Shown here: piece after piece, positions 6,052 to 62,226 of the stretch
How positions within the stretch are numbered: position 1 is the first letter of the stretch
How the letters are laid out: each line of letters begins with the position of its first letter
NCBI RefSeq assembly: GCF_001677475.2
Contig: NZ_CP015229.1
Length of the DNA: 64,000 nucleotides
Source: Escherichia coli
GTDB lineage: Bacteria > Pseudomonadota > Gammaproteobacteria > Enterobacterales > Enterobacteriaceae
Direction: 5' to 3' (one strand)
Program-made: the position numbers and the translations under genes
The notes under the pieces: generated by a model
Database searches by the model: none
Seen by the model: the letters and a program-made list of their open reading frames with translations, nothing else
Told to the model about the DNA's origin: nothing

Positions 6052-6128
6052 CCGTTGGAATCGTGTGCTGCACAAAATTAAAGTTGTAAAGTGAAAACCC
6101 CCGTTCCTTACCAGTTCGGGGGTTTTAC
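6052..6128 (+). ncRNA. ohsC: candidate antitoxin sRNA OhsC, divergent from shoB
   Basis: Sigma70-like -35 TTGTAC / 18 bp / -10 CATAAT (6041-6046); rho-independent hairpin CCCCCG...CGGGGG + T-tract at 6098-6126; 19-nt segment 6055-6073 matches plus-strand 5806-5824 in the shoB 5'-UTR region at 18/19 positions, the expected pairing site. Confidence 0.45.
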
Positions 6129-6151
6129 TTTATAAAGAGAACGGTATTTTT

Positions 6152-7274: not shown

Positions 7275-8003
7275 TCATTCATAATGTGTTTTCACCGTTC
7301 GCTTAGGCATAAACTGCCGGAACAGTTCCCTGCTCTTTAATGGTTTACCGCCAAGATACGGCTTAAGCGCCATGCGGGTAAAGCGTTTCGCGGCGCGTAG
7401 TGTGTCTGCGTCAGGAAATTCCCGCGCGTTTAACGCTTTTAACTGCCTTCCGGTGAACGTTTTATTGTCGATAACGACGCTTGCGATAAACCCTTTTTCT
7501 TCGCGATAACGATACGTCATGGTGTCATCTACCGGCTCGCCGCTACCCGCGCAATGGGTAAAATTGACGCCATAGCCCAGATGCCCGAGCAGTGCCAGTT
7601 CAAAGCGGCGCAGCGCGGGTTCTGGCGTACCAGTGGCACCTGCAAGTGACTGAATGCAGTGCAAGTAATCGAAAAAGAGTTCAGAGAAGCGCGTCTCGTA
7701 TTCCAGTACGCGGGAGAGAAGTTCGTTGATGTACAGACCGCTGTAAAGCGTGATACCGCTTAATGGCAGCGCCAGCGAGACAGCTTCAGCACTGCGCAGC
7801 GTTTTGACTTCGCCACGCCCGCCAAAACGTAGCAAGAGAGGGGTGAAAGGCTGTAATGCACCTTTCAGAGTAGAGCGTTTAGAGCGTGCGCCTTTGGCAA
7901 CCAGACGCACGCGACCCGATTCCTCCGTGAAGACGTCCAGCATCAGGCTGGTTTCGCTCCACGGGCGACTATGCAATACGAATGCGCGCTGCCAGCCTTC
8001 CAT
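7275..8003 (-). CDS. recO: DNA repair protein RecO
   Basis: 242 aa from [20 protein letters not shown]. Confidence 0.95.
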
Positions 8004-8134
8004 CATACTCGTCGCCTTTCAAGTTGCAGGTGCCTTGGCTGCACCCGTTCACCCTGGTCACTTACTTTAGTAAGCTCCCAGGGATTCACGGTCTTGCCGC
8101 CTTCCTGCACCTCGAAAGTCATAGAGTATGCTAA

Positions 8135-9747
<1,613 letters not shown>

Positions 9748-9988
9748 TCAGCACACGAAACAGACCTGATATACATGGCTCTGCTAACTGCTTCGCTGCA
9801 GTTTCAGTTTAGCGGTATATGGGGACCAACGCTGTTTCGTGTGCCGTGGCAACCTGGAGGTGCCAACCTTAAACTTCGGGGGAATATTCTATACACAACG
9901 ACGGGGGATGTCGTTAGCCACGGGAGATTTATCTCATAAATAATTCACGTTGTCGCCATAACGGCGACAACGTGAACGAAGATGGCTA

Positions 9989-10978: not shown

Positions 10979-12778
<1,800 letters not shown>

Positions 12779-12975
12779 AAAGTATGATTATTGTGCCTTA
12801 ATGCCCGGTTAACCAGGCTTTTAGAAGTCGCTGTTCTGAGCTTAACGTCTGTATTAATAGAAACGCCGCATTCTACACTACAACATTGAGGCGAGGAAAT
12901 GTTCATACCGTATGGATTGTGGTATCTGGAAACGTCCTCGCATTTGTTATGCAAAATGCAACAAAGCCAGTGAAA

Positions 12976-13455
12976 TCACTGGCTCGCGTCTTCCGAAGAT
13001 GTTTCAAATCGCACAAGGCCAGGCGGCAATGCCACGCTTAAGATGATCGGTTGCCATTCAGACCGGGCAGCAAACTTTCGAGAGCAGCCACGTGCAATCA
13101 GGAATCCACCAACGCCACCGAGAATCGCACCGCATAATGCTGCAATATCTGAAGCAAAGAGTAGCTGAAATAGTGAAGCGATGAGGAATAGTCCCACCAA
13201 CGGCGACATATAAACCAGTAATGCGGAGCTAAGCAGGCTGCCTTCGGCGATTCCTAATTCTACTTTTTGCCCCGGCACTAACGGCTCATCACAGGGTACG
13301 ACAATGGTATGCGTGGTTTGCGGGCCAAGTTTATTCAACACGCGGCTACCGCAACCGGCGCGTGAAGCGCAGCTGCTGCATGAGGCTTTAACATCACAAC
13401 TGACCAGCGCCTGCCCGTTTTGCCAGGAGACGACGGTAGCCCACTCTTTGATCAT
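12976..13455 (-). CDS. rseC: sigma-E regulatory protein RseC
   Basis: 159 aa; position and sequence in the rpoE-rseABC operon. Confidence 0.93.
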   Translation of the reverse strand: MIKEWATVVSWQNGQALVSCDVKASCSSCASRAGCGSRVLNKLGPQTTHTIVVPCDEPLVPGQKVELGIAEGSLLSSALLVYMSPLVGLFLIASLFQLLFASDIAALCGAILGGVGGFLIARGCSRKFAARSEWQPIILSVALPPGLVRFETSSEDASQ

Positions 13456-14408
13456 TGCGCTGCCCCGAACTTAATATTCTCGGCAATGCGTTTCGCCGTT
13501 TGCGGCGGCAGTTCACCGACAATGGTGATTTCGGCGTTATCACGTACGCTTGTACTGACGGTTCTGCGTCCGGTGCGCAACATCTGATCGGTGCTCGATG
13601 GCGTAGCGCGGTTAACGTTTACCGAGAAGCTGAATAATCCGTCGGAATAGAGACGTGATTCGATAGGCATGTTGTCCATCGTCGGTAGCGGACGTCGACT
13701 ACTGGAAACTTCGCTAAAACCCTGTGGCAACCAGGTTGGCGTCCAGCTGAATTTAGCTTTTTCACCTACAGGAACAGAAAGCAACGGCGGCAAATTTGCC
13801 TTCGCCAGCGTCTGCATACTGCTGCTGATATCCTGATTGACGTTAAAAGCAATCACGCGAAATTGTTCCAGCGTTTCACCATCGCGATCAAGGAGATCAA
13901 CCCTCATCGGTAATTTCGATTCAGTGTCCATCCACACGATGTAGCTGTAGCGTGTACCATCTCGGGCAACCACGCGAATGACTTCGCAAAGACGATCAGC
14001 AATACGCGTGCGCCCGACGGAGATAAAGTCGTAGTAAGGAGAAAGGCGTTTGAAATCGGTATAGATGAGCGATGGCAGAGAATCAACAATGTAATCGCCA
14101 TTAAGCGTGAACGGTTCAAGTCCCGGTTCAAAATAGCTGATTTCATTGCCGCGCTGTACCACTTCCCGGCGCGGGCCATCCATTTGCAACAATTGTGCAA
14201 GAGGACGGTTATCGAGGCGTGCATGTCGATAACGCAGAGACTCAACACCCTGTTTATTGATGCTGATGAATGACAGCTCGTAATTCAGTGACTGACTGGC
14301 CAGGTTCATCTGCTGTAATAACGCCCCGGACGCGGGAGTGGCCGAGGCGTTAGCAGAGAATAACAGGCTACCTGTCACTAATGACATGGCAAACCAAAGT
14401 TGCTTCAT
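13452..14408 (-). CDS. rseB: sigma-E regulatory protein RseB (periplasmic)
   Basis: 318 aa with signal peptide; overlaps rseC and rseA stop/start. Confidence 0.95.
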   Translation of the reverse strand: MKQLWFAMSLVTGSLLFSANASATPASGALLQQMNLASQSLNYELSFISINKQGVESLRYRHARLDNRPLAQLLQMDGPRREVVQRGNEISYFEPGLEPFTLNGDYIVDSLPSLIYTDFKRLSPYYDFISVGRTRIADRLCEVIRVVARDGTRYSYIVWMDTESKLPMRVDLLDRDGETLEQFRVIAFNVNQDISSSMQTLAKANLPPLLSVPVGEKAKFSWTPTWLPQGFSEVSSSRRPLPTMDNMPIESRLYSDGLFSFSVNVNRATPSSTDQMLRTGRRTVSTSVRDNAEITIVGELPPQTAKRIAENIKFGAAQ

Positions 14409-31714: not shown

Positions 31715-31834
31715 ATGCCTGGCAGTTCCCTACTCTCGCATGGGGAGACCCCACACTACCATCGGCGCTACGGCGTTTCACTTCTGAGTTCGGCATGGGG
31801 TCAGGTGGGACCACCGCGCTACGGCCGCCAGGCA
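31715..31834 (-). rRNA. rrfG: 5S ribosomal RNA
   Basis: 120-nt exact match to E. coli 5S rRNA (UGCCUGGCGGCCGUAGCGCGG...CUGCCAGGCAU) on the minus strand. Confidence 0.97.
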
Positions 31835-31931
31835 AATTCTGTTTTATCAACACGTCATGTTCTGACCTGTCGATTTAATCTGTATCAGGCTGAAAATCTT
31901 CTCTCATCCGCCAAAACAGCTTCGGCGTTGT

Positions 31932-34834
<2,903 letters not shown>

Positions 34835-35017
34835 TCACAACCCGAAGATGTTTCACTTCTGATTGCGAAAATTTGAGAGACTCACGAACAACTTTCGTTG
34901 TTCAGTGTTTCAATTTTCAGCTTGATCCAGATTTTTAAAGAGCAAATATCTCAAACGTCACCCGAAGATGAGTTTTGAGATATTAAGGCAGGTGACTTTC
35001 ACTCACAAACCAGCAAG

Positions 35018-35093
35018 TGGCGTCCCCTAGGGGATTCGAACCCCTGTTACCGCCGTGAAAGGGCGGTGTCCTGGGCCTCTAGACGAAGGGGAC
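35018..35093 (-). tRNA. gltW: tRNA-Glu (UUC) in the 16S-23S spacer
   Basis: 76-nt match to GUCCCCUUCGUCUAGAGGCCCAGGACACCGCCCUUUCACGGCGGUAACAGGGGUUCGAAUCCCCUAGGGGACGCCA. Confidence 0.96.
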
Positions 35094-35178
35094 GTATCAG
35101 TCTGCTTCGCAAGACGCCTTGCTTTTCACTTTCTATCAGACAATCTGTGTGAGCACTGCAAAGTACGCTTCTTTAAGG

Positions 35179-36720
<1,542 letters not shown>

Positions 36721-36901: not shown

Positions 36902-36929
36902 ATAATACGCTTTCCCGCTACAGAGTCAA
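36902..36929 (-). promoter_or_regulatory. rrnG P2 promoter
   Basis: Minus strand TTGACT - 16 bp - TATTAT upstream of the 16S leader. Confidence 0.8.
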
Positions 36930-37019
36930 GCATTTTTTTGCTTTTCTCTGTTGAGATTCTCAGGAGAACCCCGCTGACCCGGCGGCGTGTTTGCCGTTGT
37001 TCCGTGTCAGTGGTGGCGC

Positions 37020-37047
37020 ATTATAGGGAGTTATTCCGGCCTGACAA
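37020..37047 (-). promoter_or_regulatory. rrnG P1 promoter
   Basis: Minus strand TTGTCA - 16 bp - TATAAT with the GC-rich discriminator GCGCCACC; A/T-rich UP-element region further upstream (37050-37120). Confidence 0.85.
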
Positions 37048-37127
37048 GCGAAAAATATAAAAACTTTATCGTTCGCTCACTTTTCAGGCAAAACATCTTA
37101 AATATAGTCTTTTCCGTCTAACTTATA

Positions 37128-37156
37128 GACAAAAACGAGCCCCGAAGGGCTCGTTT
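37128..37156 (-). terminator. rho-independent terminator after clpB
   Basis: Hairpin ACGAGCCCTTCGGGGCTCGT followed by TTTTTG on the minus strand, 8 nt after the clpB stop. Confidence 0.75.
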
Positions 37157-37162
37157 TATCAT

Positions 37163-39736
37163 TTACTGGACGGCGACAATCCGGTCTTCATTAACTTCCA
37201 GGCGAATCACTTTACCCGGAACCAATTCACCAGACAGTATTTGCTGTGCCAGCGGGTTTTCGATCTGCTGCTGAATTGCACGTTTCAGAGGACGTGCACC
37301 ATAGACCGGATCGTAACCGTTCTCGCTCAGCAGTTTCAGCGCCTCGTCAGAAATGTGGATTTCATAACCACGTTCTTCCAGACGTTTATACAGACGTTTC
37401 AACTGAATCTGCGCAATCGACGCAATGTGCTGTTCACCCAGCGGATGGAAGACCACCACTTCATCGATACGGTTAATGAATTCCGGACGGAAGTTATGGC
37501 TAACCACACCGAGCACCAGCTCTTTCATGTGAGCATAATCCAGTTCACCGAAGCGTTCCTGAATCAGATCGGAACCGAGGTTAGAGGTCATAATGACGAC
37601 CGTATTACGGAAGTCGACCGTTCTCCCCTGCCCGTCAGTCAGACGCCCATCATCCAGTACCTGCAACAGAATGTTGAAGACATCCGGATGCGCTTTTTCC
37701 ACTTCATCCAGCAGGATGACGGAATACGGACGACGACGCACAGCTTCGGTCAGGTAGCCACCTTCTTCATAACCGACATATCCCGGAGGCGCACCAACCA
37801 GACGAGACACCGAGTGTTTCTCCATAAACTCGGACATATCGATACGGACCATCGCCTCGTCGCTATCAAACATAAAGTTCGCCAGCGCCTTACAAAGCTC
37901 TGTTTTCCCCACACCAGTTGGGCCGAGGAACAGGAATGAACCAATCGGGCGATTTGGATCCGCCAGCCCCGCACGGCTACGACGAATAGCGTTAGATACC
38001 GCATCAACCGCTTCGTTCTGACCAATTACGCGATGGTGCAGTTCTTGCTCCATACGCAGCAGTTTTTCGCGCTCGCTTTCCATCATGCGAGAAACCGGAA
38101 TCCCCGTCCAACGCGCCAGCACTTCAGCAATTTCGGCGTCGGTCACTTTATTACGCAACAGACGCATAGTTTTGCCTTCGAGCTGCGTTGCGGCTTCCAG
38201 TTGCTTTTCCAGTTCCGGGATTTTGCCGTATTGCAGTTCAGACATCCGCGCCAGGTCCCCCACACGGCGAGCCTGTTCAATAGCGATTTTCGCCTGTTCC
38301 AGTTCCGCTTTAATGGTCTGCGTACCAGAAAGCGATGCCTTCTCTGCTTTCCACTCTTCTTCTAACTCGGAGTACTGACGTTCTTTGTCGCTCAGCTCTT
38401 CGTTGAGCATATCCAGGCGTTTTTTACTGGCTTCATCAGACTCTTTCATTAACGCCTGTTGTTCCAGTTTGAGCTGGATGATACGACGATCGAGTCGGTC
38501 GAGTTCTTCTGGTTTTGAGTCAATCTGCATACGAATGCTGGATGCTGCTTCATCGATCAGGTCGATGGCTTTATCCGGCAGCTGACGGTCAGCAATGTAG
38601 CGATGAGACAACGTCGCCGCTGCAACAATTGCCGGGTCAGTAATTTGCACATGGTGGTGCAATTCGTAACGTTCTTTCAGGCCACGCAGAATCGCAATGG
38701 TATCTTCAACAGAAGGCTCGGCAACAAACACTTTCTGGAAACGACGTTCCAGCGCAGCATCTTTTTCGATGTACTGGCGATATTCGTCAAGCGTCGTGGC
38801 ACCTACGCAGTGCAATTCACCACGCGCCAGCGCCGGTTTCAGCATGTTTCCGGCGTCCATTGCGCCATCGGCTTTACCCGCGCCGACCATGGTATGTAAT
38901 TCGTCGATAAACAGGATGACGTTGCCTTCCTGTTTGGCAAGATCGTTAAGCACGCCTTTTAAACGTTCTTCAAACTCACCGCGATATTTCGCCCCAGCCA
39001 CCAGCGCGCCCATATCCAGCGCCAGTACCCGGCGGCCTTTCAACCCTTCCGGCACTTCGCCGTTGATAATACGCTGCGCCAGACCTTCAACGATGGCAGT
39101 TTTACCGACGCCTGGTTCACCAATCAGTACCGGGTTATTTTTAGTACGACGTTGTAGCACCTGAATGGTACGGCGAATTTCTTCATCACGACCAATCACC
39201 GGATCGAGTTTGCCCTGTTCGGCTCGTTCGGTAAGGTCGATGGTATATTTTTTCAAAGCCTGACGTTGGTCTTCAGCACCTTGATCGTTCACGCTTTCAC
39301 CTCCACGCATTTGTTCAATCGCTTGAGTAATGTTGGCGGTGGTCGCCCCTGCTGCTTTCAGGATGTCGGCCAGCGTGCCGCGAGACTCAAGTGCCGCCAG
39401 AACGAACAGTTCTGACGAGATAAAGTTATCACCACGTTTTTGCGCCAGCTTGTCGCAAAGATTAAGAACGCGCACCAGATCCTGTGATGGCTGGACATCA
39501 CCACCAGTACCTTCAACCTGCGGTAAACGATTTAATGCCTGATTGATATCTGTGCGCAACTGGCCAGCATTAATGCCAGCGGATGTTAATAAAGGACTAA
39601 CCGAACCCCCTTCCTGATTCAGCAGGGCGCTCATTAAATGAAGTGGTTCGATGAATTGGTTGTCGTGCCCGAGTGCAAGTGATTGGGCATCGGCAAGAGC
39701 AAGCTGGAATTTATTAGTAAGACGATCCAGACGCAT
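37163..39736 (-). CDS. clpB: disaggregase chaperone ClpB
   Basis: 857 aa from [11 protein letters not shown]; two AAA+ modules (Walker A GEPGVGKT and GPTGVGKT), coiled-coil M-domain. Confidence 0.97.
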
Positions 39737-39774
39737 AACTCCTCCCATAACGGATCAAAGTTGCTACTGGAGAT

Positions 39775-39803
39775 TAAATGAGGTCATCCCTCAATTATTC
39801 AAG
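39775..39803 (-). promoter_or_regulatory. sigma-32 heat-shock promoter of clpB
   Basis: Minus strand CTTGAA - 14 nt - CCTCATTTA, matching the sigma-32 -35 / -10 consensus (CTTGAA / CCCCATnT). Confidence 0.65.
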
Positions 39804-39865
39804 GTTATTGACCAGATTAATGTGAAAAGAAAATCACGCGTACCGGATCGTCTTGATTCTTTAGG

Positions 39866-40597
39866 TTATATCAGCCAAATGAAACTTGCCATACGACCAG
39901 TGGTCTTGTCGCGACGATAAGAGAAGAAAGTCTCATTTTCCGTATATGTACAACGGTTGCCGCCGAAAATTTGTTCGACACCGACGTTCGCCAGACGCTG
40001 CCGGGCAAGGAGATAAATATCCGCCAGATACTTATCACCATGCTGAATGAAAGCTGTACTCGCTTTGGCGTCTACTGCCATAAACGCCTCGCGAACCTCC
40101 GCCCCCACTTCAAACGCGCGTGGACCAATTGCCGGCCCTAACCAGGCGAGAATATTTTCCGGATTATCAGCAAAACAGGAAACCGTCTTCTCCAGCACGC
40201 CAGCGCACAGTCCACGCCAGCCAGCATGAGCGGCGGCGACTTCCGTTCCCGCTCGATTGCAAAACAGCACGGGGAGGCAGTCGGCAGTCATCACTGCGCA
40301 AACCGTGCCCGGCGTGTTGCTATAAGAGGCATCTGCTCGTTTTGAGGCATAAGGTTCGCCAGTAAGCTTAAGCACATCTTTGCCGTGTACCTGCTCAAGC
40401 CAGACCGGTTTTGAAGGCAAATGGCCCGCAGCAAAAAGTCGCTTGCGATTCTCCTCAACGTGATCCGGGTTATCGCCACAATGAGCACCGAGGTTGAGCG
40501 AGTCATACGGGGGCAAGCTCACGCCGCCGATACGAGTAGAGCTACAGGCCGCAACACCTTTTGGCAGCGGCCACTGCGGGACAATCAGCTTACTCAT
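39866..40597 (-). CDS. pgeF: purine nucleoside phosphorylase / peptidoglycan editing factor YfiH (PgeF)
   Basis: 243 aa from MSKLIVPQWPLPKGVAACSSTR; DUF152/laccase-like fold; 4-nt overlap with rluD. Confidence 0.92.
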   Translation of the reverse strand: MSKLIVPQWPLPKGVAACSSTRIGGVSLPPYDSLNLGAHCGDNPDHVEENRKRLFAAGHLPSKPVWLEQVHGKDVLKLTGEPYASKRADASYSNTPGTVCAVMTADCLPVLFCNRAGTEVAAAHAGWRGLCAGVLEKTVSCFADNPENILAWLGPAIGPRAFEVGAEVREAFMAVDAKASTAFIQHGDKYLADIYLLARQRLANVGVEQIFGGNRCTYTENETFFSYRRDKTTGRMASFIWLI

Positions 40598-43106: not shown

Positions 43107-43161
43107 TTGACAGCGTGAAAACAGTACGGGTACTGTACTGAAGTCACTTAAGGAAACAAAC

Positions 43162-43209
43162 ATGAAACACACACCGTTTTTCTTCGCATTCTTTTTTACC
43201 TTCCCCTGA
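43162..43209 (+). CDS. pheL: pheA leader peptide (Phe-rich attenuation peptide)
   Basis: ATG at 43162; translates MKHTPFFFAFFFTFP plus stop (7 Phe in 15 codons). Confidence 0.9.
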   Translation: MKHTPFFFAFFFTFP

Positions 43210-43254
43210 ATGGGAGGCGTTTCGTCGTGTGAAACAGAATGCGAAGACGAACAA

Positions 43255-43288
43255 TAAGGCCTCCCAAATCGGGGGGCCTTTTTTATTG
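43255..43288 (+). terminator. pheA attenuator (intrinsic terminator of the leader)
   Basis: Hairpin AAGGCCTCCC-aaatc-GGGGGGCCTT followed by a T6 run, between pheL and pheA. Confidence 0.85.
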
Positions 43289-61863: not shown

Positions 61864-62226
61864 GGGGCTGATTCTGGATTCGACGGGATTTGCGAAACCC
61901 AAGGTGCATGCCGAGGGGCGGTTGGCCTCGTAAAAAGCCGCAAAAAATAGTCGCAAACGACGAAAACTACGCTTTAGCAGCTTAATAACCTGCTTAGAGC
62001 CCTCTCTCCCTAGCCTCCGCTCTTAGGACGGGGATCAAGAGAGGTCAAACCCAAAAGAGATCGCGTGGAAGCCCTGCCTGGGGTTGAAGCGTTAAAACTT
62101 AATCAGGCTAGTTTGTTAGTGGCGTGTCCGTCCGCAGCTGGCAAGCGAATGTAAAGACTGACTAAGCATGTAGTACCGAGGATGTAGGAATTTCGGACGC
62201 GGGTTCAACTCCCGCCAGCTCCACCA
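61864..62226 (+). ncRNA. ssrA: tmRNA (SsrA), 363 nt, ending CCA
   Basis: 5' GGGGCUGAUUCUGGAUUCGACGGG, tag-coding region ...GCAAACGACGAAAACUACGCUUUAGCAGCUUAA, 3' GGGUUCAACUCCCGCCAGCUCCACCA. Confidence 0.97.

Follow-up and report, generated by a model that had tools for sequence, protein, structure and literature searches.

The window analysed here, a stretch of 64,000 nucleotides of Escherichia coli DNA (RefSeq assembly GCF_001677475.2, contig NZ_CP015229.1), carries on its minus strand the full-length coding sequence of clpB (37163..39736, stop codon included), identified from the list of open reading frames, its Pfam domains and a RefSeq match. The product, ClpB95, has 857 amino acids and a computed mass of 95.6 kDa. 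Its Pfam domains are, in order, Clp_N (PF02861, E = 3.2e-28, in two stretches), AAA (PF00004, residues 203-336), AAA_lid_9 (PF17871, 342-442), AAA_2 (PF07724, 596-760) and ClpB_D2-small (PF10431, 766-845). Hence, of the features of the ClpB/Hsp104 class-1 Hsp100 AAA+ disaggregases, Clp_N, two AAA+ modules and ClpB_D2-small are present, and the gene is clpB. A long coiled-coil middle domain after NBD1 separates ClpB from ClpA and ClpX, and residues ~443-595, between AAA_lid_9 and AAA_2, hold no listed best Pfam stretch and provide space for such a middle-domain insertion. The primary Shine-Dalgarno sequence, GGAGGAG (39739..39745, minus strand), lies 5' of the annotated ATG (39736..39734) and its duplex with the anti-Shine-Dalgarno sequence reaches -10.2 kcal/mol. 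The open reading frame list starts the gene four codons upstream, at an ATG at position 39748 that lacks Shine-Dalgarno pairing (+0.6 kcal/mol) and overlaps the real ribosome-binding site of clpB.

A second initiation codon is found within the gene. Codon 149 is a GTG (39290..39292, minus strand), which is Val149 in the long form and fMet in the short one, and which is supported by the sequence, by Ribo-RET and by mutagenesis in Salmonella. It is preceded by GGAGGTG (39298..39304, minus strand), a Shine-Dalgarno sequence made out of the Gly145-Gly146-Glu147 codons GGA GGT GAA, and then by five nucleotides (AAAGC), which sets the GGAGG core 7 nt from the GTG, inside the usual functional spacing range. 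The 20 nt upstream of the GTG are AAATGCGTGGAGGTGAAAGC. The preliminary description of this DNA had reported both the GTG and a strong ribosome-binding site 5 nt upstream of it; a reading of the sequence and a script place the codon exactly, to the base, on the minus strand, and the duplex of the GGAGGTG with the anti-Shine-Dalgarno sequence (-10.6 kcal/mol) pairs as strongly as the primary ribosome-binding site of the gene. Another ATG, Met143 (39308..39310, minus strand), lies six codons upstream of the internal start and is a decoy without Shine-Dalgarno pairing (-1.4 kcal/mol).

How unusual is this arrangement? We took 50 non-overlapping long open reading frames of the window as proxies for genes (48.4 kb of coding sequence) and scored their 859 internal in-frame ATG, GTG and TTG codons by the best duplex of positions -20..-3 with the 3' end of the 16S rRNA (ACCUCCUUA), a sequence that is found at the 3' end of the strain's own 16S gene (window 35179..35192). 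GTG149 has the strongest pairing of all 859, only two of which reach -10 kcal/mol, and it is the sole one with a GGAGG placed 5 to 9 nt before an in-frame start-like codon. It naturally also ranks first among the 51 in-frame start-like codons of clpB itself. The window holds a single copy of the 15-mer GGAGGTGAAAGCGTG, where 100 shuffles give an expectation of 0. The GGAGGTG-N5-GTG of clpB is thus no chance match. These pairing energies must be read with some care since the purine-rich run is partly forced by a conserved Arg-Gly-Gly peptide (CGN GGN GGN); it is the exact choice of the codons GGA and GGT that makes this run a Shine-Dalgarno sequence.

The same scan brought up two other sites. 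The second strongest internal pairing (-10.2 kcal/mol) is at codon 173 of yfiH (40079..40081, minus strand), where CGGAGGTTCGCGAGGCG precedes an in-frame ATG; here some 14 nt separate the GGAGG from the ATG, probably too great a distance, but a GAGG lies closer. The third (-9.5 kcal/mol) is an in-frame GTG at 7908..7910 (minus strand), codon 33 of the open reading frame 7275..8006, which follows CACGGAGGAATCGGGT. This GTG could be the true start of its gene rather than an internal one, because our proxies took the longest possible start of each open reading frame.

Translation from GTG149 to the common stop (37163..39292, minus strand) gives an in-frame short isoform, ClpB80, of 709 amino acids and 79.9 kDa (computed). 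The two computed masses agree with the names ClpB95 and ClpB80. The short product retains all the Pfam domains of ClpB except Clp_N. The segment specific to the long form, residues 1-148 (39293..39736, minus strand), is the N-terminal domain: in a phmmer search it aligned over residues 1-148 with the 148-residue chain of PDB 1KHY (E = 2.5e-91), which is the crystal structure of the E. coli ClpB N domain, and it also matched full-length solved E. coli ClpB chains, e.g. 6rn2 and 4d2q. Since the omitted residues correspond to 1KHY from end to end, the start of ClpB80 falls exactly on the boundary of the N domain, and the short form lacks residues 1-148 only.

The reference annotation of E. coli K-12 describes the same pair of products. 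In the MG1655 RefSeq record, b2592 carries two coding sequences, 'chaperone protein ClpB' (NP_417083.1) and 'ClpB80' (YP_010051194.1), the latter beginning 444 nt after the start of clpB, which is codon 149. The K-12 gene shares with the window the GTG at this codon, the GGAGGTGAAAGC spacer and both products. The two sequences are identical over a stretch that reaches from 440 nt or more upstream of the site to 60 nt beyond it, bar two distant synonymous changes. These changes, TTC/TTT and ATT/ATA, are the only differences over the 571 nt spanning both starts. The preliminary description had held that this is the known internal initiation site of the N-domain-less ClpB-80 and that its signal is intact in this strain; both statements stand, given the MG1655 coding sequence, the loss of Clp_N from the short product and the identity with MG1655 around the site. 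Compared with MG1655, the window's allele has a few synonymous substitutions and is expected to show no functional difference. Most RefSeq records of E. coli show a single feature at the clpB locus. In the window, clpB should bear two coding sequences, of 857 and 709 amino acids, as the K-12 reference record does.

The site is nearly invariant within the species. A region of 2.8 kb around the gene (window 37100..39900) has a match in 5425 of 5426 complete E. coli genomes, in all of which it is annotated as clpB beside yfiH. The best identity over this region is 99.6%, and the window's clpB allele thus has no exact counterpart among the 5426 genomes. Of the 5425 genomes bearing clpB, 5376 agree fully (100%) with the window over the 56 nt that surround the site, and 5416 keep the core 30 nt (28-nt exact-word search). 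Relative to the window, nucleotide identity over the gene falls to 94% in E. albertii, 87% in Citrobacter werkmanii and 86% in Enterobacter cloacae, while codons 144-149 (CGT GGA GGT GAA AGC GTG) are identical in all three. Synonymous codon identity is 1.0 at these codons against a mean of 0.70 for the gene, a level that no more than 1% of 8-codon windows reach. This invariance at synonymous sites in Enterobacteriaceae points to selection that acts on the RNA signal as such, in addition to selection on the protein. Further away, GGAGG-N7-GTG is kept with different intervening codons in an uncultured Enterobacterales MAG and in a Pasteurellaceae genome (Rodentibacter). The corresponding site reads GGT GGT ... 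GTT in Photorhabdus and GGT GGC ... GTG in Providencia. As for the protein, ClpB of E. albertii is 100% identical to that of the window (rounded, in the best tblastn segment) at only 94% nucleotide identity, a sign that purifying selection acts very strongly on the protein.

The E. coli clpB internal start was reportedly already the object of mutagenesis by Park et al. in 1993. Initiation at this site has since been profiled: Ribo-RET gives a peak at the internal site, and clpB is among the genes whose internal starts are shared by E. coli BW25113 and BL21 (Meydan et al.). In Salmonella Typhimurium, which makes the pair ClpB-L and ClpB-S and has an orthologous GTG at nucleotide 445 (Val149), a Ribo-RET peak is also found at the internal site, HiBiT-tagged ClpB runs as two bands, and the chromosomal change of GTG-445 to CTT leaves long ClpB only (PMC11005335). 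The preliminary description would have been refuted by the lack of an initiation signal at this codon in such profiling, and the published data from two E. coli strains do show the signal. The internal start of clpB is therefore real and functional; it was already known, is annotated in MG1655 and has been verified experimentally in the tested strains.

We think it almost certain that in this strain too a single clpB mRNA would be read from two in-frame starts to give ClpB95 and ClpB80, the sequence identity with the tested strains carrying the claim over; for E. coli we found nothing that contradicts it. Ribosomes recruited at the primary GGAGGAG and ATG would make the 857-residue ClpB95, whereas others, loading independently at the internal GGAGGTG-N5-GTG of codon 149, would make the 709-residue ClpB80. 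Loading of the 30S subunit on the internal Shine-Dalgarno sequence of the full-length, heat-shock-induced mRNA would then supply subunits that lack the N domain, in a proportion either fixed or modulated. ClpB80 would start where the N-terminal substrate-binding domain ends and keep both AAA+ modules, a probable middle domain and D2-small. According to the literature, ClpB95 and ClpB80 form hetero-oligomers with synergistic disaggregation (PMC6941012; bioRxiv 10.1101/428458); such mixed hexamers would disaggregate better than either form alone, and the ratio of the two forms is described as shifting under stress. In Salmonella this ratio varies with growth condition (PMC11005335). The dual start sets the balance, within the ClpB hexamer, between subunits with and without the N domain, and it is this ratio that the literature ties to the efficiency of disaggregation and to thermotolerance. 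This is established and not new.

A different point of control would apply if ClpB80 came mainly from a separate, shorter transcript, with a promoter inside the region coding for the N domain and the same start codon. There is some precedent for this. Leptospira clpB has weak transcripts whose 5' ends lie 20-96 nt upstream of its internal start; in an E. coli host, too, one transcript of the Leptospira gene was seen to begin there (PMC6941012). Yet, a scan with the sigma-70 consensus finds no such promoter between the two clpB starts (39292-39736, minus strand), the minus-strand sites lying only downstream of clpB and upstream of the 16S gene, and we dropped an internal sigma-70 promoter as a source of short transcripts. 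Promoters of the sigma-32 or sigma-E type would escape this sigma-70 scan, a point in favour of the shorter transcript. The Salmonella study, however, finds the alternative starts within mapped transcripts and ascribes the differential expression to translation (PMC11005335). We thus regard a separate transcript as the main source of ClpB80 as very improbable, though it may be a minor contributor beside internal initiation on the full-length mRNA.

Alternatively, the 80-kDa form might be a proteolytic fragment, cut in the linker between the N domain and NBD1, and the GGAGG-GTG a mere coincidence of the codons for Gly-Gly-Glu-Ser-Val. It is true that interdomain linkers, such as the one that holds the site, are typical targets of proteases, and that the conserved Arg-Gly-Gly gives a G-rich run whatever the function of the start, as it does in most of the 80 species surveyed below. 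But retapamulin traps initiating ribosomes only, and the peak at the clpB site is specific. Proteolysis is also at odds with the finding that short ClpB disappears from Salmonella once the GTG is changed to CTT (PMC11005335), and with the separate RefSeq coding sequence annotated for ClpB80. Furthermore, codons 144-149 show no synonymous change between genera at 86-94% identity to the window, which constraint at the level of the protein cannot explain. Proteolysis as the origin of the short form is hardly credible in the face of this evidence for initiation at GTG149.

The ATG of Met143 (39310..39308) is the preferred type of start codon and the place where an automated caller put the Salmonella Ribo-RET peak (PMC11005335), but as a candidate for the true internal start it can be set aside with equal assurance: its pairing is of -1.4 against -10.6 kcal/mol at GTG149, the GGAGG lies downstream of it, RefSeq begins ClpB80 at codon 149, and in Salmonella the change of this codon (ATG-427 to CTT) leaves both isoforms in place, as fits a codon without Shine-Dalgarno pairing, whereas the change of GTG-445 does not (PMC11005335).

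One caveat concerns the local structure of the mRNA. In the predicted fold, its Shine-Dalgarno sequence is partly paired, with a mean probability of being unpaired of 0.30 over positions -15..+5 against 0.44 at the primary start, and the minimum free energy structure pairs GGAGGUG with an upstream CCACC. One might thus speculate on an RNA thermometer, where CCACC..CCA (codons 135-137) would mask the internal Shine-Dalgarno sequence until heat. We rejected this idea. The fold is no stabler than those of shuffled sequences (z = -0.86; 42 of 200 fold as well), and CCACC is not kept in Citrobacter, Photorhabdus, Providencia and Pasteurellaceae, several of which keep GGAGG-GTG.

Dual starts of this kind are known in other genes. 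Like clpB, infB (IF2 alpha/beta) and mrcB (PBP1b) have one mRNA with two in-frame starts, an N-terminally shortened isoform and an internal Ribo-RET peak. Their proteins are unrelated to ClpB, and what sets clpB apart is that its internal start lies exactly at a domain boundary, so that a whole folded domain is omitted. Among ClpB proteins, the Salmonella pair is a parallel from a different species, and there the short form was about ninefold scarcer than the long one (PMC11005335). In Mycobacterium tuberculosis, an internal start was reported at the equivalent Val149 GTG, giving ClpB-deltaN, a short form without the N domain (PMC6168691). This is a distant phylum, and its N domain (6dju) matches that of E. 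coli at just E = 1.3e-13.

We surveyed 80 clpB genes of gamma- and beta-proteobacteria, i.e. the window's gene and the 79 full-length loci among 80 found. At the column of residue 149, 77 of the 80 have Val. The codon is GTG in 37 genes, GTC in 28, GTT in 10, ATT in three and GTA in two. The column thus holds a non-initiating codon in 43 of the 80 genes, including those of all sampled Pseudomonas (L060, L062, L063 and L069), of Photorhabdus and of some Vibrio and Shewanella; L005, L012 and L013 are also among the loci without GTG. Species of Vibrio and Shewanella are among those with GTT. Most of the lineages without GTG show no obvious alternative Shine-Dalgarno sequence plus start between residues 120 and 180. 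The fraction of GTG at column 149 (0.48) is mid-range among the 28 conserved Val columns (0.12-0.68). When loci were counted by GTG plus strong pairing on energy only, column 149 scored 16, against 18 and 15 for columns 262 and 580. A criterion that takes spacing into account gave 25 loci for column 149, against one for column 262 and nine for column 580. In these 80 genes, GTG and the Shine-Dalgarno core show no significant co-occurrence across species (Fisher p = 0.11), and Arg-Gly-Gly, kept at the protein level in most of them, forces part of the upstream pairing. Since the fraction of GTG is mid-range and the association is not significant, conservation across proteobacteria is not usable as evidence from DNA, and we dropped it as a proof of function.

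Tentatively, the internal start may have been added in certain lineages only and not be a universal feature of ClpB. We find this possible, if somewhat doubtful. If true, many proteobacteria would make no ClpB80 or would make it otherwise, and the synonymous constraint in Enterobacteriaceae would reflect a comparatively local gain or retention. The codon survey is mildly useful in itself, as it shows that, outside Enterobacteriaceae, a GTG able to initiate has a patchy distribution and is by no means universal.

The surroundings of clpB include several other features. Directly downstream lies a complete rRNA operon (31717..36720 and 36902..37047, both on the minus strand), with 16S, a spacer tRNA, a StyR-44 match, 23S and 5S, an arrangement that MG1655 shows at rrnG. 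The 440 nt that separate the clpB stop from the 16S gene hold two strong sigma-70-like promoters, with 11/12 and 10/12 matches. On the other side of the gene, Rfam finds the small RNA Ysr155_RyfD at 39717..39855 (minus strand), with 125 bits for a gathering score of 42. This match, which is ryfD (b4609) as annotated in MG1655, spans the intergenic region between yfiH and clpB, reaches ~20 nt into the start of clpB, and overlaps the 5' UTR of clpB and its primary ribosome-binding site. Also upstream of clpB is CTTGAAT-N13-CCTCATTTA (39775..39803, minus strand), which we take to resemble the consensus of sigma-32 heat-shock promoters, CTTGAAA-N13-14-CCCCATNT. The other Rfam matches of the window, i.e. 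the ohsC antitoxin RNA (6054..6131), the rncO leader (9663..9877), AsrC, antisense of rseC (12660..13491), the Phe leader (43161..43286) and tmRNA (61864..62226), are all expected in this region of the E. coli chromosome.
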